From an uncultured Candidatus Saccharibacteria bacterium (GTDB taxonomy: Bacteria > Patescibacteriota > Dojkabacteria > J137): 64,000 nucleotides of DNA. Where the stretch lies: assembly GCA_964607415.1 (NCBI GenBank), contig CAZSKK010000001.1, positions 333,469-397,468 of the forward strand, given 5' to 3'. The notes beneath the pieces are model-generated. The model saw only the letters and a list, made by a program, of their open reading frames with translations. It had not been told where the DNA came from and searched no databases. This document shows positions 37,628-59,931 of the stretch, one piece after another; the stretch's first letter is position 1, and every line of letters starts with the position of its first letter. The position numbers and the translations under genes were made by a program.

Positions 37628-40018
37628 CTATACTTCATACACCCTGCCCATCTCTTTTTTTCTTTGATAATATTTAGACACACCTAAAATTAATACAGTC
37701 GCAACAGGCACTACTAATCCAACAATAAGCAATGTATTCTTTTCATCTTTATTCAAATCAATTCTAGGTGCCACTCTAGTTTTAGCTTTAATTTCTGAAA
37801 TAGCTTTTTCATTTGCTAACCATTCCAAACTAGAAAGCCCAAAAGTAAAGTTATCATTTTGATTAATATACTGATCAGTCAGAAACAAAGAATCAGCTAC
37901 TATAATTGCCCTACCTCCTTGCTTATTTTCCAAAGACAATGCAATTGTTTTTATTGAATCTGTATCTTTATATGACCATCTTTGTCCTGGCTCCAACTTC
38001 ACTTCTTCAATAGTTTGAATATTTCCATCCGGGCTTGTCTCTAAAAGCCGTGTTAAAGTTCTTTCCTTCTCTGATGAGTTTTCAATTGTAATAGAACTTG
38101 CCCACAGAAAAGACACATTGTTAACTTGAGCAATAACAGGATTATTTTCTCCGGTCGTAATAGATTTTATCCACAAAGGATAATCTACAGGAATAACAAT
38201 AAGATCACTTCCACCATTAATTTGATTATTACTTGAAAGATCATAGACAAAATTCTGGTCAACAACCACACCATAATCACTAAACAGGTCAGCCATGGAA
38301 AACTCGTTGATAGTAGGCGATAGTGTTTCAAAAGGCACATCAATTGTTTCTGTCATTAAAAAGACTGATTTACCACTTTCAAAAAAATTCTTAATGTTAC
38401 TTATAACTTCATCTGGGTATTTTGCATTTGGAGCTGTAAGAACTATTACATCAATATCATCAGGGATTTCTGATTGACTTTCATCTAAGGTTAGATCCCT
38501 TATATCATAAAGCTCATCTAGTTCAGTTGATAAGTTTCTATAATCTGATAATCTTCCTTTTATTACATTATTGGGAACGAAGGCTATTACTTGTTTTTCC
38601 GTCTTTGTCAATTTTTGGATTTTCTTGGTAAGTTGAAATTCAATATCACTTGTAATACTACCCGTACTTCCAACCAATTGTAATGCTTCACTTGTTTGCT
38701 CATAAGAAATCTTTAAGCCAAAATATCCTACAGCTCTTTGGCTACTATCTTGAGTGTTGACTGCAAATACAAGTTCCTGCAAACCTATTTGACTTGCCTC
38801 AGTCGCAGCGGAATCATCTTTATCTGTATATTTTTTTTCTATGTTAATTTTCCCTTTAGATTGAATAGCATAATCTCTCAATATATCTTCAACGCTTCTA
38901 AGTTCCTCTTGAAACTGCATTGGAAGGTTTGTAGAAGTATATAAAGTAATTGTCATGTCATTAGCTATTTCAGTGATTATTGATTTTGTTGAATCAGAAA
39001 GTGTGTATTTTTTATTTGAAGTAAAATCAATCCTACCTGGTATAAATTGCCCTAATGCTCCTATTGTTATTACAACTACAATTGATACAATTAAGACAAC
39101 TTGTGAAATTCTTAAGACTTTGCTATTTGCAGGATATTTTATTTTTGCTAAAGAATAGTTTGATATAACTAGAAAAACTACAATAAAAGATGCGAAATAA
39201 ATTACATCCCTAATATCCAAAACGCCCCTAGAAAGTGAGACAAAATGAGCGTATAGTCCTACTTTGCTCAAAATTGCATCAAAATTAGCAGGCAATATTC
39301 TTATTATTTCTGAACCCACAAGAGTTAAAATTCCAGAGACTACTAAACTTGTTAAAAAAGCTGAAATTTCATTTTTAAATAGCGAAGAGGATGCAATTCC
39401 AACGCTTGCAAAACAAACTCCCAATATAAACGCTCCAACATATTGCATAGCAATCTGACCGTTATCAACAGCTGAAATGTTGCCTATGAACAAAGTAATT
39501 GGTGTTGTAAGAATTAACATGATAACTATAATAAAGCTTACAGAGAACAACTTAGAAAGCAAAAATTGCAATTCAGTAATAGGCTTTGTTAGGATATATT
39601 CTATTGTTGTGTTTTCCTTTTCCTTTGAGATTGCTCCCATCGTAAGGGCTGGAATTATGAAAACAAATGCAAAAGATATACTTGTAAAAAGTTGCGTTAA
39701 ATCCGATGTTCCAAATTCAAGGTATCTAAAAACTCCAAGCAGAATTCCGCACACAGCAATAACAAACATTGTAAGGACTATGTAGACAAGTGTAGAAGAG
39801 AAATAGTTATTAATCTCTTTTTTGGTTAGATAATAGAGCACTTTAAAGCCTGAAACACTTTCTTTAAGGCTTTTTTTAGGGTCAAGCCTAAATTTAGAAA
39901 TCGGTTCAGGTTTATAAGTAGTCACACTCTTTGACTTATTCTTATCTTGAGCCTTATTCTTAATTTTGCTCTTATTCACACTCTTAGCTTTACTTGTTGT
40001 TTTTTTACTAGTTGCCAT
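37628..40018 (-). CDS. Fused ABC-2 type permease (GldF-like) and large extracytoplasmic GldG-like auxiliary domain with a C-terminal TM anchor
   Basis: 796 aa. A basic N-terminal tail is followed by ~6 TM helices, a ~450-aa hydrophilic domain and a final TM (LLIVGLVVPVATVLILGV). The cognate ATPase is immediately downstream on the same strand. Confidence 0.55.
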   Translation of the reverse strand: MATSKKTTSKAKSVNKSKIKNKAQDKNKSKSVTTYKPEPISKFRLDPKKSLKESVSGFKVLYYLTKKEINNYFSSTLVYIVLTMFVIAVCGILLGVFRYLEFGTSDLTQLFTSISFAFVFIIPALTMGAISKEKENTTIEYILTKPITELQFLLSKLFSVSFIIVIMLILTTPITLFIGNISAVDNGQIAMQYVGAFILGVCFASVGIASSSLFKNEISAFLTSLVVSGILTLVGSEIIRILPANFDAILSKVGLYAHFVSLSRGVLDIRDVIYFASFIVVFLVISNYSLAKIKYPANSKVLRISQVVLIVSIVVVITIGALGQFIPGRIDFTSNKKYTLSDSTKSIITEIANDMTITLYTSTNLPMQFQEELRSVEDILRDYAIQSKGKINIEKKYTDKDDSAATEASQIGLQELVFAVNTQDSSQRAVGYFGLKISYEQTSEALQLVGSTGSITSDIEFQLTKKIQKLTKTEKQVIAFVPNNVIKGRLSDYRNLSTELDELYDIRDLTLDESQSEIPDDIDVIVLTAPNAKYPDEVISNIKNFFESGKSVFLMTETIDVPFETLSPTINEFSMADLFSDYGVVVDQNFVYDLSSNNQINGGSDLIVIPVDYPLWIKSITTGENNPVIAQVNNVSFLWASSITIENSSEKERTLTRLLETSPDGNIQTIEEVKLEPGQRWSYKDTDSIKTIALSLENKQGGRAIIVADSLFLTDQYINQNDNFTFGLSSLEWLANEKAISEIKAKTRVAPRIDLNKDEKNTLLIVGLVVPVATVLILGVSKYYQRKKEMGRVYEV

Positions 40019-40151
40019 TCTAATTTGTTTAGTTAAAATGTTTCGAGCTTACGTGTCTAGAAAAAATTGTTTCAAAAATTAAATTTATTTAAAAATTGAT
40101 ATATTGTATCATCGTTATATTCCGCAATAAAGGCGGTATGACGCATCTTTG

Positions 40152-40889
40152 CTATCTTGTGACTTCCTCCACTCCCTTTGTTACTTCTCTAAAAAGCTCC
40201 TCAAGTGTAATTTTTCTTTTGATAAGGTCCCTGGAAGTTTTTTCAATGCTTTCATCGTAAACGACTTTCCCTTTGTTAATTATTACTACTCTTGTACACA
40301 TTGCTTCCACTTCTTGCATAACATGCGTGCTAATCAAAACGGTTCTTTCCTTACCTAAACTCTTAATCAAGTTTCTTATTTCTAGCCTTTGATTCGGATC
40401 TAATCCTTCTGTTGGTTCGTCTAGAATTAAAATCTTAGGATCATGCACCAACACCTGATCAAGCCCAACTCTTTGTTTATAACCTTTTGACAACTGCGAG
40501 ATAGGCCTATAATAAACATTTTCAATTCCTGTTGATTGGACCACATAATCAATTCTTTCTTTCCATAATGATCTCTTAACACCATGAAGTTCAAGTGAAA
40601 ATTGAATTGCATCTCGAACCAGCATTTCTTTATAAAGTGGGTTATTTTCTGGCATGTAACCAATTATTCTTTGTGATTCTATTAAGTTGTCTTTTAAATC
40701 TTTATTATCAATCTCAACCTTGCCTTCATCAGCAACCAGGAAGCCGGAAATTATTTTCATAGTTGTGCTTTTACCTGCACCATTCGGTCCAAGAAGAGCA
40801 ACAATTTCAGAAGTCTCAATTTCTAGAGAAAGATTATCAACTGCATTAACCTTACCGTAAGTCTTAGTGATTTTAGAAAGTTTTATCAT
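40152..40889 (-). CDS. ABC transporter ATP-binding protein (ABC-2 / GldA-like)
   Basis: Walker A GPNGAGKST, signature LSKGYKQRV and Walker B ILILDEPT. Confidence 0.85.
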   Translation of the reverse strand: MIKLSKITKTYGKVNAVDNLSLEIETSEIVALLGPNGAGKSTTMKIISGFLVADEGKVEIDNKDLKDNLIESQRIIGYMPENNPLYKEMLVRDAIQFSLELHGVKRSLWKERIDYVVQSTGIENVYYRPISQLSKGYKQRVGLDQVLVHDPKILILDEPTEGLDPNQRLEIRNLIKSLGKERTVLISTHVMQEVEAMCTRVVIINKGKVVYDESIEKTSRDLIKRKITLEELFREVTKGVEEVTR

Positions 40890-40992: not shown

Positions 40993-41496
40993 ATGAGTAT
41001 TTTTCATTTCCAACCGGACAAACCGGTTGACAGTAATGCCGCTGATGGAATCTGCTGTGTTGCTTTACACTTACATTACCAAGACTTCCCTTTAGATGAA
41101 GTTACAGGACAGATTAGGTTGTTACTAAGTAATACTACTGGACTACTTGAAGATCCTAGCTCCGGGACCAAAGCAAAAATAATGAAATTTCTTCTTGAAG
41201 AAGAAATTCCTGAAACGTTTGCAGAAGAGCTAAAAGATCCCGCCTTTTATAATAAAGTTGTACTTCGTTTGAGAGCATCCCGAACGTCTATAGATACATT
41301 CGTTAACGAATGTCTGAAAGGTATAAATACAGATCTAGAGCGATGGAAGAATTTAGACAATACTCTTGGTAAAAAAGAACATTTCCAAAATTTATCGAGA
41401 ATGCTTACAAGAGTGCAAAAAAGAATGATAGAATTTTTAGACAATAATTGTCACATTAAAACACAAAATATTAATAATTTAACTTTTGAGCAGTAA
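40993..41496 (+). CDS. Hypothetical protein
   Basis: 167-aa ORF with no motif. Confidence 0.35.
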   Translation: MSIFHFQPDKPVDSNAADGICCVALHLHYQDFPLDEVTGQIRLLLSNTTGLLEDPSSGTKAKIMKFLLEEEIPETFAEELKDPAFYNKVVLRLRASRTSIDTFVNECLKGINTDLERWKNLDNTLGKKEHFQNLSRMLTRVQKRMIEFLDNNCHIKTQNINNLTFEQ

Positions 41497-41501
41497 AATT
41501 T

Positions 41502-41996
41502 ATGGATAGAGCTTTACAACAAATAGAAACTCCTGTTATAGAACTAACACCGATTGCTTCAAAGATTCAAAGCTTATGTGAAATTCCTAATAATCAATTA
41601 GCTGTAGATGATATAAATACCTTTTTATTTGGTGGTAGACACGACGAAAGTAATTATGCCACGACAAAATTTTTGCAAAATAATAACGAGGGTATTCTTG
41701 AATATCTGGAAAAGTTATCCCACCAAATAATAGACCGTACAGCCAGAGCGATACTCCAACTTGATATAGATTTTTTTCATATGCAATATTCTGGAAAACT
41801 AGAAATACATGGTGAGACTGGCCAAATAGTCGATAGGTTAACTGAGGAGGACTTAAAAAATTTAGAACACGATCCAGGTTGTCTAAAACTATATAAAGGA
41901 ATTAAATCCAACCAAGAACTTCTATTTAAATTAAACTTAGGCAAAACGCGCATAAAAAAATTGAAGCAGACAAGCTGGATAGACGGTATACTGTGA
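41502..41996 (+). CDS. Hypothetical protein
   Basis: 164-aa ORF, 5 nt after the previous ORF. Confidence 0.35.
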   Translation: MDRALQQIETPVIELTPIASKIQSLCEIPNNQLAVDDINTFLFGGRHDESNYATTKFLQNNNEGILEYLEKLSHQIIDRTARAILQLDIDFFHMQYSGKLEIHGETGQIVDRLTEEDLKNLEHDPGCLKLYKGIKSNQELLFKLNLGKTRIKKLKQTSWIDGIL

Positions 41997-42029
41997 AATT
42001 AAATGTTTACATTTACTGTTTTTCACTCT

Positions 42030-42330
42030 ATAATTAATTCAACTCACAAGGATGAAAGTTCCCAGCTTTCGGAGTGATGGCAGAACTGCGATTAATTCGA
42101 ATAATGCCAGCTGAACTTGCAGTGTTAAAACAAGAACAACGAGTCTCGCGAATTCGAGAGAAACAAGGTGGTACCGTGAACAATTTACAATTTTAAATTT
42201 TTTAATTTCCAAATCATTAACTTGAAAATTGGTAATTAGAATTTTAAAATTAATTGCATCGCCCTTGCATTTAGATATTAGCTAAAGATTTTGTCTTTAT
42301 TTAGTATTTGAGCGCAAGGGTTTTTTGTTT
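42030..42330 (+). promoter_or_regulatory. T-box riboswitch-like leader of proS
   Basis: The GC-rich structured leader contains AACAAGGUGGUACCGUG at 42163..42179, matching the T-box consensus AAnnnGGGUGGUACCGCG. A helix tctcg-cgaatt-cgaga lies just upstream. A downstream hairpin (cccttgc...gcaaggg) plus a U-tract sits at 42262..42326. Candidate Pro specifier triplets (CCC at about 42077, CCA at about 42111) were not resolved. Confidence 0.5.
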
Positions 42331-42403
42331 ATCTCTGCTGATTACCGAAAACTGAAAATAATTTTAATTACTGAAAACACATAACTCATTACTCACAACC
42401 AAT

Positions 42404-44116
42404 ATGAAATACTCAACTTTATTCGGAAAAACCGTTCGAGAAGCAACCAAAGATATGGCTATGACTTCTCACAAATTACTTTACCAGGCAGGATTTATTA
42501 GAGAATCTACTGCAGGTAGATACTTCTTTCTACCACTAGGTTGGAAAGTTCATGACAAGATTAAGCAAATCATCAAAGAGGAAATGGACAAAGCTGGAGG
42601 ACAGGAAATGATTTCGCCAGTTTTACATCCATTGGAACTTTGGAAAGAAACCAATAGAACTAATACAGTAGGATTTGAATTAATGGTAATTAAGGATCAT
42701 AGAGGTGCAGAATTTGCACTTGGAGGAACAGCAGAAGAAATGTTTGTAGATGTAGTTCGGAAATTTCAACTGAGCTATAAAGACTTGCCATTTAATATTT
42801 ATCAATTCTCAACAAAATTTAGAGATGAAAAACGAGCTCGTGGTGGTCTTTTAAGGGTTAGAGAATTTGTAATGAAAGATGCCTATTCATTTGATAAAGA
42901 TGAAGAAAGCTTTAAAAAAACTTACACATTAATGGCTGAAACTTACAAAAAAATATTTGAACGCGTAGGCTTAAATGCATTTATGGTGCCTGCTGATAAT
43001 GGTTACATTGGTGGTGAATACTGTGATGAATTTCAAGTTGAGCACGAGAAAGGTGAGGGTAAATTTTTTGTATCTGAAGATGGAACTTATATTGCGCATG
43101 AAGACATTGCTACATTTAAACATGAAGAAAAAAATCTTTCAGAAGGGCTTAAAGAATATCAGGAGATTGACGCAGTTAGAGGAAACTCAATGGAAGATGG
43201 GGTGAAACTTCATGGATTACCACTTTGGCAACAAATGAAAGATGTAATGTTTGCAGATGAAAAAGGAAATCTTATTTTATGCATAATTCGTGGAGATTTA
43301 GATGTTAACGAAACAAAAGCACTACACGCATCTGGAGCAGCTCAGTTAAGGCCTGCAACAGAAGAAGAAATTAGAGCCATTGGATCTGAACCAGGATTTA
43401 TTTCTCCCGTTGGGTTAAAGGGTAAAGTTAAAATCATTGGTGATACTTCGCTTAGAACTGTAAAAAATATGTATGGTGGTGCAAATAAAAAACATAAAGA
43501 TGTACTTAACATGAATATTGATCGTGATTATCAACTGGATATTGAAGCGGATATTGCAATGGCACAAGATGGATTTTTGTCTCCAGATGGTAAAAGTGTT
43601 TTGAAAGAAAAACGCGGAATTGAAGTTGGAAATATATTTCAGCTTGGTTACCACTATACAAATCTTATGCAAAACGCTTTGTATACAGATGAAGATGGTA
43701 CTCAGAAGAAATTTTATATGGGATGTTACGGTATTGGACTTGGAAGAACTTTGGCAACAATTGTAGAAAAACATCATGATGAAAAAGGTATTATTTGGCC
43801 TAAGTCAGTTACTCCATTTCATGTACATTTGGTAACAATTGCAAAGTCTATAGATGATGAAAGTTATAACAAATCAAATGAACTTTATAATAAACTGATG
43901 GCTAGTGGAATTGATGTACTTTGGGATGATAGGTTGGATGTATCTGCAGGTGGTAAGTTTAATGATTCAGATTTAATAGGAATTCCTTTAAGACTTATAA
44001 TTAGTCCTAAAACTTTAGAGCAAAATGGTGTTGAAGTTAAAGAAAGATCTAAATCTGACTTTGAAATAATGGCAGAAGACAAACTGGTTGAATTTATAAA
44101 GAGTTATTATAAGTAG
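42404..44116 (+). CDS. proS: Prolyl-tRNA synthetase (bacterial type with an INS editing domain)
   Basis: 570 aa. Class II motifs FRDEKRARGGLLRVREFVMKDAYSF, an INS-like insert (GFISPVGLKG) and a C-terminal anticodon-binding domain. Confidence 0.9.
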   Translation: MKYSTLFGKTVREATKDMAMTSHKLLYQAGFIRESTAGRYFFLPLGWKVHDKIKQIIKEEMDKAGGQEMISPVLHPLELWKETNRTNTVGFELMVIKDHRGAEFALGGTAEEMFVDVVRKFQLSYKDLPFNIYQFSTKFRDEKRARGGLLRVREFVMKDAYSFDKDEESFKKTYTLMAETYKKIFERVGLNAFMVPADNGYIGGEYCDEFQVEHEKGEGKFFVSEDGTYIAHEDIATFKHEEKNLSEGLKEYQEIDAVRGNSMEDGVKLHGLPLWQQMKDVMFADEKGNLILCIIRGDLDVNETKALHASGAAQLRPATEEEIRAIGSEPGFISPVGLKGKVKIIGDTSLRTVKNMYGGANKKHKDVLNMNIDRDYQLDIEADIAMAQDGFLSPDGKSVLKEKRGIEVGNIFQLGYHYTNLMQNALYTDEDGTQKKFYMGCYGIGLGRTLATIVEKHHDEKGIIWPKSVTPFHVHLVTIAKSIDDESYNKSNELYNKLMASGIDVLWDDRLDVSAGGKFNDSDLIGIPLRLIISPKTLEQNGVEVKERSKSDFEIMAEDKLVEFIKSYYK

Positions 44117-44117
44117 A

Positions 44118-44615
44118 TTGGACACAACTTTTGGACCTGGATTTACCAACTTTGAAAAAAACCCTGTTCATAAGCTTACTAAGTACTTTCAACACTGGCC
44201 AACAAGTATAGAGTCTAGTGAAGTTGCAATTGAATCTACTGAAGAAGATTCAAATTTCCGAGAATTACTTACTCAACAGATGCGTATTGGATTTTTAGCA
44301 TACCTTGAAGTAATGACCAGGGAAAGAGAAGTTTCAAACTACTATTTAGAAATTTATATTCCGAGAGAAGCACTCAAAATTGTACGAGCTTATAAAGACG
44401 AATGCGTTGTTTGTGCATTATTCAATGCATCGGAACCTGATTTCTTTGATTTTGCCCTTTCAAAATTTTCTTATGATAAGCACGATATGACCCACGGGGC
44501 TCTTGTTGACTTCGCCTATGATATTTATGAAATAAAATATCATAGCCAGTTAGGCGAAAGCGTTATCGATTGGCTAACCAGCACCTTACAAGGAGAAGAC
44601 GATGATGATAGCTAA
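44118..44615 (+). CDS. Hypothetical acidic protein ending in a poly-Asp tail
   Basis: 165 aa, starting 2 nt after the proS stop. The C-terminus reads ...LQGEDDDDS. Confidence 0.35.
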   Translation: MDTTFGPGFTNFEKNPVHKLTKYFQHWPTSIESSEVAIESTEEDSNFRELLTQQMRIGFLAYLEVMTREREVSNYYLEIYIPREALKIVRAYKDECVVCALFNASEPDFFDFALSKFSYDKHDMTHGALVDFAYDIYEIKYHSQLGESVIDWLTSTLQGEDDDDS

Positions 44616-53298: not shown

Positions 53299-53370
53299 CT
53301 GGTCAGCTAGGATTCGAACCTAGAGTCTTCCCGTTAACAGCGGGATGCAATACCATTATGCTACTGACCA
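53299..53370 (-). tRNA. tRNA-Asn (anticodon GUU)
   Basis: Reverse complement: TGGTCAG-TA-GCAT-AATGGTAT-TGC-AT-CCCG-CUGUUAA-CGGGA-AGACT-CTAGG-TTCGAAT-CCTAG-CTGACCA-G. The acceptor is a perfect 7 bp. The anticodon loop is C-U-GUU-A-A. The T-loop is GGTTCGAATCC, the discriminator is G, and CCA is not encoded. Confidence 0.85.
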
Positions 53371-53379
53371 TTATAGCTT

Positions 53380-53412
53380 TTGTGTCACTCTGAGGGAAAT
53401 CGAAGAGTGACA
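53380..53412. other. Perfect 10-bp hairpin immediately upstream (5') of tRNA-Asn
   Basis: gtgtcactct-gagggaaatcgaa-gagtgacac. Confidence 0.4.
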
Positions 53413-53470
53413 CACTTAAAACCATACGTCATAGTTCAATTTCCTCCACTACGACATTGTATAAAAACAA

Positions 53471-53500
53471 AAAAACTCCTTTTTCCCAGGAGTTTTATTA
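53471..53500. terminator. Intrinsic terminator hairpin with T-tracts on both strands, downstream of aspS
   Basis: aaaactcct-ttttccc-aggagtttt. On the minus strand it is followed by tttgttttt. Confidence 0.5.
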
Positions 53501-53667
53501 TTCTTAACAACAATAAAAGCTCCGGTTTAGGAGTTGTTATTATTATTGTTATTATTAGCTTTCTTGAACATAAATAAATTATACCAATGAGTTAATCAAA
53601 TAACAAGACTACTGTCCTTCCGAAGCAACCTATGCATGTAAATGAATACAGAATGACACCGCGGAAT

Positions 53668-55464
53668 TCACACTGAAAAATCACCTAGAATTGGATTAAC
53701 CGCATCAACTAAATCTTTAGCCTTCATTTCAATTGAGCAGGTTCTTTTGCCACAGTTAAAGTCAACTGTTTCGTTATTTAAAATCTTTTCATCAAAATAC
53801 GTTTTTAAGCCTAAAAGATTCCCTAGTGGAGGAACTCCACCAACTTGAATTCCAAATTTTTCTAAAATCACTTCTGGTTTTTCAAATTCAATTGCTTCTC
53901 CCAAAATTTCTTTTGCTTTAGTCATATCTAGTTTTAAGTGAGCTGGCATTACAAACATAAAGTTCTCGCTAGATTTCTTGCCTTTAACAATTAGAGCCTT
54001 AGCTCCTTCTTCAATTTTGGTTCCTCTAACTCTACTTGCATCTTCACTTGTTACAACTTCTTCATGTTCATCGTATTCATATTTAAAACCAAATTTATCT
54101 AAATGTTTTTTTATTTGCTCTGTAACATCAATATTTTTGTTGAATTTTCTTTTGATTGGAACACCAGCAATTCGCTTTGTGTCTGATGGGAACAAAACTG
54201 TCTCTCTGATATTTTCTAAACCTAGAAGCTGTAGAGTAAATCTTTCAAGGCCAATCCCAAACCCTCCATGTTTTGGCATACCGTATTTGAATATTGATAG
54301 ATAATCCGTAAAATCTTCCGGATTTAAACCCTTCATTTTTAAACTTTCTACCAAATCATCGTATTTATCAATTCTTTGGCCTCCACTTGAAACTTCAGTT
54401 CCATTACAAATTAAATCCCCGTAGTTACAAACCAGTGGATTTTCTTCATTTGGTTTTGCATAAAATGCACATTTTGTTCTTGGGAAGTGAGTAACAAAAA
54501 TAAAATCAATTCCAAATTTTTCTTTAGCATATTTACATATAAATCTTTCCGCATCAGGCGAAAGATCATTTTCATTTCTTTCATCTTTGCCTGTTGCTTC
54601 AAAATATAGTTCTAGTGCTTCTTTTAATGTAACTTTTGGAATTGTAATCTCATCTTTAAGAGTTGCAAAATTAGGAAAGAGTTTAATTTCTTCAGCACAT
54701 TTTTCCAGAACTTTTTTATACATTGCTTTAATTACTTTTTCCTCCCACTCCAAAACTTCATCAAATTTTTCAATAAATCCAACTTCAAATTCAAACTGAG
54801 TTGCTTCTGTAATATGTCTTCTGGTATTTGATTTTTCAGCTCTAAAGCACTTCAAAGTTCCAAAAACTCTTTCAAAAACACCAACCATCATTTGTTTATA
54901 TAGTTGGTTTGATTGAGCTAATTTTGCTTCAACACCAAAGTAATCGACAGTAAAAAGTTCTGCCCCACCCTCACTTGAAGCTCCAATAATGGCAGGTCCC
55001 ATAAACTCTGTAAATCCTTGAGATATAAGATATTCTCTATATCCTTCTAAAATTGCAGCTTGAATCTTAAAAACTGCACTGATTTTTTCATTCCTTAAAG
55101 TTAGCGGTCTATAATCTAAAATTGTATCAATGTGAGCATTAATTTCTGGTTTATTAACTTCAACAGGCCAAGGTTCCGTTATAGCATTTTCAATTGTAAT
55201 TTCAGGATTAGTGATTTCAAAACCAAGCTCTGCTTGTGAATTTTCTTTTACAATTCCAAAAATTTTTATAATTGATCCAGGCTGAAGTGTACTTAAATTT
55301 TTTATATCATCCGCATTTTCAACAAAAACCTGAACCAAACCGCCTCTATCTCTTAAAATTAAAAAAGCAATTTTTCCAAGTTTCCTAAAGTTATGTAACC
55401 AACCTTTTATATAGACTTTTTCGCCCACTTTTTCTTGGCACTCAGTAGATATTATTCGTTCCAC
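53668..55464 (-). CDS. aspS: Archaeal/eukaryal-type aspartyl-tRNA synthetase fused to a C-terminal YbaK/ProX-like aminoacyl-tRNA deacylase domain
   Basis: 598 aa. N-terminal OB fold. Motif 2 is FRAEKSNTRRHITEATQFEFEVGF. Motif 3 is SSGGQRIDKYDDLVESLKMKGLNPEDFTDYLSIFKYGMPKHGGFGIGLER...LFPSD (compare archaeal AspRS GMPPHGGFGLG...FPRD). An extra ~150-aa C-terminal domain has ALIVKGKKS..FMFVMPAHLKLDMTKAKEILG, FGIQVGGVPPLGN and FNCGKRTCSIEMKAKDL, matching the YbaK blocks (YKTLLV.., GYLVGGISPLG, VSGGKRGLDIEL). Confidence 0.75.
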   Translation of the reverse strand: MERIISTECQEKVGEKVYIKGWLHNFRKLGKIAFLILRDRGGLVQVFVENADDIKNLSTLQPGSIIKIFGIVKENSQAELGFEITNPEITIENAITEPWPVEVNKPEINAHIDTILDYRPLTLRNEKISAVFKIQAAILEGYREYLISQGFTEFMGPAIIGASSEGGAELFTVDYFGVEAKLAQSNQLYKQMMVGVFERVFGTLKCFRAEKSNTRRHITEATQFEFEVGFIEKFDEVLEWEEKVIKAMYKKVLEKCAEEIKLFPNFATLKDEITIPKVTLKEALELYFEATGKDERNENDLSPDAERFICKYAKEKFGIDFIFVTHFPRTKCAFYAKPNEENPLVCNYGDLICNGTEVSSGGQRIDKYDDLVESLKMKGLNPEDFTDYLSIFKYGMPKHGGFGIGLERFTLQLLGLENIRETVLFPSDTKRIAGVPIKRKFNKNIDVTEQIKKHLDKFGFKYEYDEHEEVVTSEDASRVRGTKIEEGAKALIVKGKKSSENFMFVMPAHLKLDMTKAKEILGEAIEFEKPEVILEKFGIQVGGVPPLGNLLGLKTYFDEKILNNETVDFNCGKRTCSIEMKAKDLVDAVNPILGDFSV

Positions 55465-55713
55465 AGTAATATGATTAAATAATAAAGATTATAGATTAAC
55501 GACTAAAGAAAATCTTTAATTTACAAACATCAGTTTTAAAAACTGAGAATTCTTTAAAACTTGTCCTGAACTAGTTTCAGGATTGTACTTTGAAAATTAT
55601 TTTGAATGCTTTGATCTTGATTATTTGGGCTCATTCGTGCTCTTTACCTCTCTACCTTTTCTAAGTATACTATTCAAAGATTATAGCAAAAATGAAAGAA
55701 TAGAAGAGTTAAT

Positions 55714-55825
55714 TTGTTAATTAGTCTCAGGTTAATTAGTAAAATACGAATTAACTTTTTTACTAGTTAACCAATTAACCTATGCAATATAAACTCAAAA
55801 CCCTTAACCCGTTAACTCTTAAACT
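55714..55825. promoter_or_regulatory. Conserved AT-rich operator-like motif, copy 2
   Basis: tttgttaattagtctcaggttaattagtaaaatacgaattaacttttttactagttaaccaattaacc...cccgttaactc, upstream of the gene at 55832. Confidence 0.45.
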
Positions 55826-55831
55826 TTTCAT

Positions 55832-57906: not shown

Positions 57907-59931
57907 TTAGTACTTTCTCAAACTTTCAATACTTGTTTGTTCTGGAGCTACTTTTCTTTCAACTTGAACTGGTTTTTGATTTGTATACAAAGGCATTCCA
58001 AAACTAAATACACTGCCTTCCCCGACTTTACTTTGAACATCTAAAATTCCTTCCATTATCCTTATAAGATTGAATGAAACGTAAAGTCCTAGACCGGTAC
58101 CACCTGGTCTCACAATTGATGCTGGATCGCCTGGATCTCCTGTATACTGCTTTGCACGAAAGAACTTTCTTCCAAGCTTTTTTAAATCCTGCTCATCAAT
58201 ACCGATCCCAGAATCTCTAACATGCACCCAACCAAAGTTATCCTTAACTTCAACAGATATTTCTACAAAACCTTTAGGAGTGTATTTAATTGCGTTTCCA
58301 ATAAAGTTATCTGCAACTTCTTGAATTCTTGTTCTATCGCAGTAAACAAATACGTCCTTTTCTGGCTTTTGATACTTAATTTCAAGGCCTCGCTTAATTG
58401 CTTGACCTTTTAAAGCTTCCAACGAATCATTAATAACATCCAAAAGATCAACCTTTTCAATAGCCAATTGAAAGCCTTTGCTGTCTGCTTTTGTTGCAGA
58501 AAGAAGTGTTTCAATAAGGTTAATTTCTCGTTTTGCAGATTCAATTGCTGCATCTACATATTTTTGTTGTTTATCTAAAGGAATAGAACCTTCCTTTTTT
58601 AAGTGAAGCTCCATCATGCCTAAAGCATTTCTAACAATAGACATTGGAGTTCGAAGTTCATGTCCCATAATGTCAATCATATCCCGTTCACGCTCGCGGG
58701 CAATTTGAAGTTCGCTTAGTGCTATCTCCAGATTATTTTTAACTCTTTCAACTTCTGTAAATAATCTTGCATTTTCTAGTGCAATACCAATTTGAGTTGT
58801 ATATGTTTGCAATAGTTGCTTTTGATTTTCTTCCAATTCTTCAGACCCTTTATCCTTTATCAGATAACCTATTGTTCCTACAATTCTGCCCCTAGAAAAT
58901 ACTGGATACACTGCTATGGATTTTACGTTTATAATTCTAAGAAGTGGTGTTATCAATGTTTTTGGAATTGGTGGTGAAAAAGCATTTATAAGGTCATTAG
59001 AAAACTGCGGTTCCCCTGAAAGGATAGCTTTCACAGTAGGCGTTCCAACTGCAGCTGGGTCTTTTACAAAAGTTTCATATTTTTTAAAGTCTCCCAGTAA
59101 ATTTCTTGCAGCATCTGAAATTCTGTTTCTTGTTAATGCTTTGACTGTAATTGAACCTTCTAAAGAGTCGTAATCAGTAAGAATACCACCTATCATCATT
59201 TGATCTTGTGGCAAAGAATCAACAGCAGTTTGACTTACTACATCAGGATCCAATGATTTACTGATTTGAGAAGTTAGGTTGTAGAGGGAGGCAAGTTCAT
59301 TTGCCTTCAAACGTATAGTATGGAGCTGATTATTTTTTTCTTCGAAAGATTGAGCATTGAAAATGGCGATTGCAACTTGAGATGAATAGATTTTTAATAA
59401 ATCAAAGTCGGAACTAAAAGATTCATCTTTTAGCTTAGTAAACATTATTACACCTAAACAGTCAGTTCTGTATATTAATGGTAATGACACAATTCTTTTT
59501 GTTCTGCTTAGATTCTGCAAAATGTTTGCAACATTAGACGTTATTGTAGGAACAATAAAATCTGCAAGATTCTCAGATTCCTTAATTTCTTTGTCTAAAA
59601 ATGTTCTAACAATAAAGTTGGATTTTTCTGCAATAGAAACATTAAGACTATCAAATGATCCACCAATAAGCCTTTTCGTAAGCAAGTTATTAATAGCCTT
59701 ATTAGTAAATGTCTTACTATAAATTTTTTGCGCTTTATCATTATATAAAAAAACTACCGCACTATCATACTTCAGTTTATTTACAATTATATCCACAGAC
59801 TTTTGTAATATTTCGTCAAGGCTTAAGCTAGTACCTATCAAATTGCCAACGTCAATAACAGCAGCGTACTTAGACTGAACAATCTGGGTGTCCATTTGAC
59901 TATTTGTTATTGTTTTTCTAGAACCAAACAT
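57907..59931 (-). CDS. Cytoplasmic sensor histidine kinase with tandem GAF-like domains
   Basis: 674 aa. H-box MGHELRTPMSIV and HATPase_c (VRDSGIGIDEQ, GGTGLGLYV). No TM segments. Confidence 0.8.
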   Translation of the reverse strand: MFGSRKTITNSQMDTQIVQSKYAAVIDVGNLIGTSLSLDEILQKSVDIIVNKLKYDSAVVFLYNDKAQKIYSKTFTNKAINNLLTKRLIGGSFDSLNVSIAEKSNFIVRTFLDKEIKESENLADFIVPTITSNVANILQNLSRTKRIVSLPLIYRTDCLGVIMFTKLKDESFSSDFDLLKIYSSQVAIAIFNAQSFEEKNNQLHTIRLKANELASLYNLTSQISKSLDPDVVSQTAVDSLPQDQMMIGGILTDYDSLEGSITVKALTRNRISDAARNLLGDFKKYETFVKDPAAVGTPTVKAILSGEPQFSNDLINAFSPPIPKTLITPLLRIINVKSIAVYPVFSRGRIVGTIGYLIKDKGSEELEENQKQLLQTYTTQIGIALENARLFTEVERVKNNLEIALSELQIARERERDMIDIMGHELRTPMSIVRNALGMMELHLKKEGSIPLDKQQKYVDAAIESAKREINLIETLLSATKADSKGFQLAIEKVDLLDVINDSLEALKGQAIKRGLEIKYQKPEKDVFVYCDRTRIQEVADNFIGNAIKYTPKGFVEISVEVKDNFGWVHVRDSGIGIDEQDLKKLGRKFFRAKQYTGDPGDPASIVRPGGTGLGLYVSFNLIRIMEGILDVQSKVGEGSVFSFGMPLYTNQKPVQVERKVAPEQTSIESLRKY

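Follow-up and report, generated by a model that had tools for sequence, protein, structure and literature searches.

A probable tRNA-Pro-responsive T-box riboswitch with a short Stem I upstream of proS in a Patescibacteria genome

We analyzed a 64,000-nucleotide (nt) stretch of contig CAZSKK010000001.1 from an uncultured Candidatus Saccharibacteria bacterium (hereafter the window), in which proS, the gene for prolyl-tRNA synthetase (ProRS; 42404-44116, + strand), is preceded by a 407-nt leader. The leader (41997-42403) fills the gap between a hypothetical open reading frame (ORF) that ends at 41996 and the ORF of proS. Is this leader a regulatory RNA, and if so, what does it sense and how does it act on proS? 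A first-pass annotation, made from the sequence alone, had proposed that a T-box leader of about 400 nt controls the gene. Our computational analysis finds T-box modules, two mutually exclusive folds, homologous leaders upstream of proS in related genomes, covariation within the helices and conservation between close relatives, all of which support that proposal. We conclude that proS is very probably under transcription attenuation by this leader, acting as a T-box riboswitch that responds to tRNA-Pro.

The proS leader and its switch

The product of proS is a bona fide bacterial-type ProRS with an editing domain. In a profile search it scores 610.9 bits against NF006625 (cutoff 558) and 529 bits against TIGR00409, and the precomputed Pfam domains of its homologues are PF00587, PF04073 and PF03129. 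The closest ProRS sequences are found in Patescibacteria (BroJett037, Levyibacteriota, Woesebacteria, Beckwithbacteria, Collierbacteria, Pacebacteria), with 55-73% identity, and one metagenomic contig (L161) encodes a ProRS that is 95% identical. We accordingly place the source of the window in Patescibacteria, within the candidate phyla radiation, as a Microgenomates-like bacterium. A scan of upstream regions shows the T-box element in 12 further loci, equivalent to 11 distinct leaders (L161, L017, L010, L012, L097, L166, L170, L172, L164, L082, and L167, which equals L169). By “12 leaders” we mean the window and these 11 relatives.

The first-pass annotation described the leader as much richer in GC than its surroundings and more structured. 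The first half of this description fails for the leader as a whole (31.0% GC, against 33.1% for the window) and holds only for 42041-42180 (44.3%); the segment 42181-42258 has 15.4% GC. The second half is borne out, as the 301-nt segment starting at 42035 is more stably folded than 100 of 100 dinucleotide shuffles (z = -4.8). A promoter-like site with 11 of 12 consensus matches is located at 42006-42034 (+ strand, as are all leader features described below). It consists of a -35 hexamer TTTACA (42006-11), a 17-nt spacer and a -10 hexamer TATAAT (42029-34), and the transcript would be expected to start near 42041. The two hexamers are the same in L161 while the spacer between them is not, and four other leaders (L097, L017, L010, L012) likewise have a promoter-like site a few nt 5' of Stem I. 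Because the promoter lies directly 5' of Stem I, there is no space for a long Stem I.

The T-box string AACAAGGUGGUACCGUG (that is, AACAAGGTGGTACCGTG) is at 42162-42178, where a near match to the T-box consensus had been reported. The 14-nt consensus is AGGGUGGNACCGCG, whose UGGN pairs with the NCCA-3' end of the tRNA (PMC11297988), and AAGGUGGUACCGUG at 42165-78 agrees with it at 12 of 14 positions. GGTGGNACC has a single intergenic occurrence in the 64-kb window; the other exact match, at 58096, is inside an ORF. The 5' half of the antiterminator (42162-42179) contains CAAGG of helix A1 (42164-68), the 7-nt bulge UGGUACC (42169-75) and GUGA of helix A2 (42176-79). The 3' half (42259-42267) contains UCGC of A2 (42259-62) and CCUUG of A1 (42263-67). 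Between the two, atop helix A2, is a 79-nt AU-rich insertion (42180-42258, 15% GC) that is predicted to form a single long hairpin. A second promoter-like site (TTGAAA-17-TAAAAT, 42222-42250) is found within this insertion and may be a chance occurrence in 15%-GC sequence. The UGGU of the bulge (42169-72) is present in 12/12 leaders and would fit a tRNA with discriminator base A73, as the first-pass annotation had suggested.

Downstream is the GC hairpin with a U-tract that had also been pointed out. It is an intrinsic terminator (42261-42326), in which GCCCUUGC (42261-68) pairs with GCAAGGGU (42314-21) around an inner hairpin, with six U residues (U6, 42321-26) at the end. The 5' arm of the terminator is the 3' strand of the antiterminator (42261-67 are shared). 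Do the two structures compete for this strand? We ran unconstrained folding of the discriminator domain (from 42141 on), with and without the 3' arm of the terminator. When the domain is cut before this arm, the lowest-energy fold is the antiterminator, in which A1 and A2 flank the 7-nt bulge UGGUACC. For the full domain (42141-42326) the lowest-energy fold is the terminator, at -52.1 kcal/mol compared to -41.0 kcal/mol with the antiterminator forced; the terminator hairpin by itself has -29.5 kcal/mol. Competition for this strand is therefore seen in the folding, as two mutually exclusive folds that share 42261-67. In all eight leaders that we folded, the full-length fold contains a terminator; it shares sequence with the antiterminator and has five or more U at its end. 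Hand pairing gives the same overlap and U-tract in four later leaders. The lowest-energy pre-terminator fold is the canonical antiterminator in the window, L097, L166 and L170.

Could the T-box act on translation instead, or at both levels, by sequestering and releasing the ribosome-binding site, like most T-boxes with a short Stem I (classes III and IV)? Large insertions in helix A2 have been described as typical of translational T-boxes (PMC7583486), and the window has such an insertion. However, the alternative helix is a hairpin with U6 that stands 78 nt before the start codon, without touching the start region. No Shine-Dalgarno sequence is visible before the ATG at 42404, and no ribosome-binding site is sequestered. 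Past the terminator, the 77-nt spacer shows no conservation (53% identity to L161), a hairpin with at least five U ends 12/12 leaders, and several relatives have a separate small ORF between the terminator and proS. We consider control of translation unlikely and prefer transcription attenuation.

Stem I, the specifier and Stems II and III

Stem I (42046-42075) is short and consists of a base that resembles a kink-turn (K-turn), a helix and an apical loop. The base is formed by AC 42046-47 / GU 42074-75, a 3-nt bulge AAG (42048-50), tandem G.A/A.G pairs from GA 42051-52 and GA 42072-73, and U42053.G42071. The K-turn (GA motif) is recognized at the sequence level only; Rfam aligns this region to the K-turn of its model, and three relatives (L010, L012, L017) have the K-turn sequences GAUGA...GGAG or UGA...GAGC. 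The helix GAAAG 42054-58 / CUUUC 42066-70 (5-6 base pairs) covaries among relatives and closes the apical loop UUCCCAG (42059-65). In L161 Stem I is the same except for A42048U in the bulge. The long Stem I of class I and II T-boxes, with an AG bulge and a distal loop that form the interdigitated T-loop (IDTM) elbow platform, is not found in the window leader, which has only about 30 nt (42046-75) from promoter to Stem II. The Rfam T-box alignment has just 9 nt in place of 76 positions of the model's distal Stem I. The minimal Stem I described in the first-pass annotation is thus confirmed.

Which codon does the apical loop display? The specifier would lie at 42061-42064, either as CCC (42061-63) followed by A42064 or as CCA (42062-64) followed by G42065. 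The two candidates offered earlier were misplaced: the CCC put at about 42077 is actually at 42061-63, and the CCA put at about 42111 is at 42107-09, where it is part of the Stem II 3' strand rather than the specifier. A proline codon CCN followed by a purine is found in the Stem I apical loop of 12/12 leaders, all upstream of proS. The loop is UUCCCAG in the window and L161 (CCC-A or CCA-G); UUCCCCG in L010 and L012, UAUCCCG in L017 and UUCCCG in L097 (all CCC-G); UAACCGG in L164 (CCG-G); and CUUCCUA in L082, CUCCUAA in L170, L172 and L167, and ACUCCUACC in L166 (all CCU-A). The CC is invariant and the third base is variable; all four nucleotides are represented there only under the CCA reading of the window. 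Such a pattern is what would be expected of a tRNA-Pro specifier. Loop position leaves the register undecided, as the G-ending loops favor CCA-G while the loops of the CUCCUAA type (N-U-CCN-A-R, similar to an anticodon loop) favor CCC-A. With no tRNA-Pro gene in the window, the two registers are inseparable; each reads as proline, and the choice between them concerns only the isoacceptor.

We also observe a second Stem I sub-architecture in four relatives (L166, L167, L170, L172). There the specifier hairpin (CUCCUAA loop) is part of a three-way junction, with an extra hairpin within the outer helix (ACCU/AGGU or AGCU/AGCU). In L017, a 30-nt hairpin is inserted 3' of the specifier hairpin.

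Stem II (42076-42110), aligned by Rfam, has UGGCA 42078-82 paired with UGCCA 42105-09, an internal GAA / AAUA and a distal hairpin; L161 has a 2-nt loop deletion (42094-95) and A42101C. The internal segment has only a sequence resemblance to the S-turn (GAA...AAUA, compared to the consensus GAA...AGUA), and there is no contiguous string of five purines. The Stem IIA/B pseudoknot follows at 42111-42134, with IIA formed by CUG 42111-13 / CAG 42120-22 and IIB by CUUG 42116-19 / CAAG 42131-34. Relatives share this topology with other pairs (CUCA/UGAG, GUCA/UGAC, UUGU/ACAA, GUAG/CUAC, GACG/CGUC, GAGA/UCUC), and the L161 changes at 42110 and 42126 are at unpaired positions under the model. An initial version (IIA CUUG/CAAG, pseudoknot UGUU/AACA) was dropped; its replacement fits the topology of the relatives and leaves the L161 change at 42126 unpaired. 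At the F-box position the window has CAGUGUUA, while the F-box is kept in relatives (CCGUUA, CCGUAA).

A purine-A-G immediately before Stem III is a conserved feature of the T-box discriminator (PMC11297988). In the window, GAG (42141-43) precedes Stem III, the whole spanning 42141-42159. Stem III pairs UCUCG 42144-48 with CGAGA 42155-59, and is the short helix that had been noted just upstream of the T-box motif. AAG or GAG is immediately 5' of Stem III in 8/10 other leaders, with one extra nt in L097 and L167; Stem III of L164 could not be placed. The pairs of Stem III covary, and the L161 changes are confined to its loop (42149-52). As predicted here, the leader has every T-box module bar the long distal Stem I.

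Homologous leaders, covariation and conservation

Are the helices maintained by selection on pairing? Variable loop lengths caused MAFFT to misalign the 3' strands of the native discriminator domains, so we used helix segments picked by hand, sequence by sequence, from 11 distinct leaders. These yield 29 pairs in seven helices (Stem I, IIA, IIB, III, A1, A2 and the terminator base), with 99% of 311 cells paired, a percentage that is partly circular since the alignment was extracted by hand. Changes on both sides are found in 25 of the 29 pairs. The covariation score is 0.75, compared to 0.21 after shuffling (0/500 as high) and 0.10-0.14 with partners slid by 1-3 columns. A1 and A2 are the least circular, because the bulge, which is invariant, sets their 5' strands, and the 3' strands adjoin each other. 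Even in these helices a G-C pair beside the bulge becomes A-U (L010), and CAAGG/CCUUG becomes AACGG/CCGUU (L170, L172); the A2 pairs vary among G-C, A-U, U.G, C-G and U-A. The first A2 pair by the bulge is A.C in L161 (1168, equivalent to window 42176) and in L172 (766), and G-C or A-U in the other leaders. This A.C might be either an A+.C pair or part of an 8-nt bulge.

The first-pass annotation had proposed an Rfam T-box search as a check, and had named two findings that together would speak against a T-box: failure of that search and lack of an alternative topology involving GGUGGUACC. We searched 41900-42500 (601 nt) permissively, with E-values already multiplied by 4227 families. The full RF00230 model (1-219) aligns to 42040-42197, and distal Stem I is the only part deleted. 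The score of 18.6 bits (E = 0.066) falls far short of the gathering score, which is 93 in Rfam 15. The search did fail in this sense, while the GGUGGUACC topology is present and is the lowest-energy pre-terminator fold. At the gathering threshold there is no T-box match in the window or in 18 related loci, the window giving only tRNA-Asn. T-boxes of known type upstream of proS also score under 93 bits (Clostridium L068, 92.2; Chloroflexota L042 and L116, 70.4 and 64.4), so the cutoff is strict and missing it is uninformative by itself; proS T-boxes may be under-annotated in general. The relatives' leaders score 49.4 (E 4e-8), 42.3, 40.4, 38.8, 37.2, 33.9, 31.3 and 25 bits against RF00230, always with distal Stem I deleted. 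Seven of the 11 further leaders are in the range of 31-49 bits (E 4e-8 to 5e-4), with one at 25 bits. L012, L161 and L166 give no Rfam T-box match, though motif and helices are present.

Could the motif have arisen by chance, the region being a structured RNA of another kind or a small coding gene? A loose, hand-written descriptor (UGGNACC bulge, 8 flanking pairs, overlapping terminator) matches the window once, and it has at least one match in 19 of 300 dinucleotide shuffles (6%; p ~ 0.06). Since the shuffles match as well, the motif alone is weak and the case rests on position, homology and covariation. ORFs of 40-57 amino acids also overlap the region (42074-42196 on the + strand, 42034-42212 on the - strand). 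However, the modules recur in unchanged order upstream of proS in 11 independent relatives, of which seven have the E-values given above, and no other Rfam family scores meaningfully better on 41900-42500. The 2-nt deletion in L161 (42094-95) shifts the frame of all three ORFs and keeps the RNA helices, and we therefore reject the small ORFs across the leader as genes. A chance match is hardly credible.

Is the T-box still functional? One might regard it as a decaying remnant, with proS expressed constitutively or from another promoter, given the very low Rfam score, the degenerate F-box, the 15%-GC insertion that splits the antiterminator, the promoter-like site inside that insertion (42222-42250) and the many related proS genes that have no leader (L001, L162, L163, L173). 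Comparison to L161 argues otherwise. The T-box core (93.5% identity) and the terminator (95.6%) are more conserved than the synonymous (third) codon positions of proS (74.6%) and match its first and second positions (95.9%). Every helix is intact, and even with the insertion the truncated window RNA has the antiterminator as its lowest-energy fold. A non-functional remnant is very unlikely.

Between the two sequences, identity is 88.5% for the A2 insertion and 88.8% for the whole proS gene. Substitutions in the L161 leader are in loops or keep the pairing, the main exception being the A.C at the first A2 pair; in the terminator, U-A becomes U.G. The A2 insertion has one compensatory change (C42209-G42232 to U-A), one A-U to G.U and two disruptive changes in L161, and is absent or far shorter in the other relatives. 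The hypothetical ORFs that flank proS (40993-41996 and 44118-44615) have 57-65% DNA identity to their L161 counterparts, compared to 89% for proS and 88-96% for the leader. The neighbors of proS may either evolve much faster or have been exchanged.

Several points weigh against a transcriptional T-box here, besides the partial circularity of the helix alignment and the low score in the permissive search. T-boxes that act on transcription generally need a long Stem I, because tRNA capture is thereby accelerated before the polymerase reaches the terminator (PMC7583486), and the elbow platform is absent from this leader. The window has degenerate S-turn and F-box sequences. For four of the eight folded leaders (the near-identical L161, and L017, L010 and L012), the lowest-energy fold of the truncated RNA is not the antiterminator, which can still be drawn. 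A whole-window Rfam search at E <= 1 does not list the T-box. The window has tRNA-Asn as its only tRNA gene and no gene for tRNA-Pro, and a scan of 50 of the ~173 related loci found no tRNA genes.

How widely does the element occur? It is present in 6/10 close relatives examined, and the relatives without a leader make its distribution patchy. A small ORF is called between the terminator and proS in L097, L172, L164 and L167/L169, and about 1.1 kb separates the two in L082. The intervening ORFs (L097 1205-1445, L164 1609-1890, L167 1105-1392, L172 873-1142) encode 80-95 amino acids, and the product of the one in L167 has a GIY-YIG domain; in the window there is only the 77-nt spacer. Located between the terminator and proS, such an ORF would be co-regulated with it.

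Proposed mechanism, genomic context and comparison with known T-boxes

How might the leader work? By analogy with known T-boxes, tRNA binding, charge sensing and the regulatory outcome would proceed as follows. After transcription starts near 42041, the 5' decoding module (K-turn, Stem I of 5-6 base pairs with its apical proline codon, Stem II, IIA/B pseudoknot) would fold and bind the anticodon of tRNA-Pro. Because there is no distal Stem I platform, the tRNA elbow would not be contacted, as in class III T-boxes. If the tRNA is uncharged, its free ACCA-3' end would pair with UGGU (42169-72) in the 7-nt bulge. This pairing would stabilize the antiterminator (A1 42164-68/42263-67, A2 42176-79/42259-62), and RNA polymerase would read through to proS. 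If the tRNA is charged or absent, 42261-68 would pair with 42314-21 to form the more stable terminator, and transcription would stop at the U-tract. Owing to the 79-nt A2 insertion and the long terminator, about 145 nt separate the bulge from the 3' arm of the terminator. It is tempting to hypothesize that this distance lengthens the time window for tRNA binding.

We looked for a second T-box before the other synthetase gene of the window, for aspartyl-tRNA synthetase (AspRS; 53668-55464, - strand), and found none in its 367-nt upstream region. This AspRS is of the non-discriminating type (NF003483, 487 bits), with a C-terminal extension of ~165 amino acids past the profile, and a tRNA-Asn(GUU) gene is located ~300 nt downstream on the same strand (region 53299-55831, -). 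At 37628-40889 (- strand), a GldA-like ABC ATPase (245 amino acids) adjoins a 796-amino-acid protein that joins GldF-like permease and GldG-like regions; all of these scores are under the equivalog cutoffs. In the related locus L171 (1-2850), proS directly abuts the genes for P5C reductase (proC) and for a proA-like aldehyde dehydrogenase; this arrangement suggests that proline biosynthesis genes and proS form an operon.

Has this kind of T-box been described before? The literature that we consulted on T-box origin and distribution names Firmicutes, Actinobacteria, Chloroflexi, Deinococcus-Thermus and a few Proteobacteria. In the literature that we searched, we found no T-box linked to the candidate phyla radiation (CPR), Patescibacteria, Saccharibacteria or Microgenomates, which is absence of evidence only, and the T-box reviews and database paper that we consulted do not cover a proline-specific transcriptional type with a short Stem I. 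The short-Stem-I model of TBDB was built from Actinobacteria and is applied elsewhere only to hits of the Rfam-based model (PMC7778990). We think the chances are about even that these leaders form an undescribed T-box clade, proline-specific and class III-like (apical-loop specifier, no elbow platform) yet acting by an intrinsic terminator. Such a clade would be widespread upstream of proS in Microgenomates-type Patescibacteria, would have at least two Stem I sub-architectures, and would be too divergent for the Rfam threshold, at which the entire group is missed in annotation.

If true, T-boxes occur naturally in the candidate phyla radiation as well, and there is one more data point for an old T-box origin among these related phyla. 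A conserved proS T-box would also mean that direct monitoring of tRNA charging persists in these bacteria, which have small genomes and are probably symbiotic. In current thinking, a missing elbow contact makes tRNA capture slow, which leads to translational control. The leader would be a natural counter-example to the elbow-platform rule for transcriptional T-boxes, in which the long A2 insertion and terminator may buy time, and the combination of a short Stem I and a terminator in one RNA would permit a direct test of the kinetic argument.

How does the element compare to known T-boxes? Four classes are distinguished, of which class III lacks the elbow platform and has a short Stem I, a Specifier in the apical loop (stated as a penta- or hexaloop) and an essential Stem II, and is “mostly” translational (PMC10482949). 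Its representative is the T-box of ileS in Nocardia farcinica (PMC10482949), and T-boxes with a short Stem I often carry helix A2 insertions (PMC7583486). We compared the window to the class III systems of N. farcinica and Mycobacterium tuberculosis ileS (Sherwood 2015; Suddala & Zhang 2019; Battaglia 2019), as summarized in these two papers. The likeness includes the short Stem I without the interdigitated T-loop platform, an apical-loop specifier followed by a purine, the K-turn, Stem II, the IIA/B pseudoknot, Stem III, the T-box bulge and an A2 insertion. Unlike class III ileS, the window element is proline-specific, is upstream of proS, and is found in Patescibacteria rather than Actinobacteria. 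Its expression platform is an intrinsic terminator instead of Shine-Dalgarno sequestration, and so departs from the “mostly” translational mode of the class. The apical loop is 7 nt long (5 with U42059.G42065 as a closing pair), against the 5-6 stated, and the S-turn and F-box sequences are degenerate, the class I/III F-box being CCGUUA.

The window element shares other features with the class I proS T-boxes of Firmicutes and Chloroflexota (Clostridium L068 and L076; Chloroflexota L042 and L116): the same gene, the UGGU bulge for A73, the same terminator/antiterminator logic and the same discriminator domain. In contrast to those T-boxes (64-92 bits in Rfam), it is without ~76 model positions of distal Stem I. 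The staphylococcal glyS T-box with stem Sa offers another parallel, being transcriptional and having a lineage-specific hairpin inserted in its antiterminator/terminator domain (PMC9177973; PMC7583486). It differs in its specificity for glycine, its long Stem I and its lack of a Stem II (PMC9177973; PMC7583486), whereas the insertion in the window is 79 nt long, is nearly pure A/U and is located on A2 of a T-box with a short Stem I. Considering these likenesses and differences together, the proS leader is best classed as a class III-like, transcriptional, tRNA-Pro-specific T-box variant.

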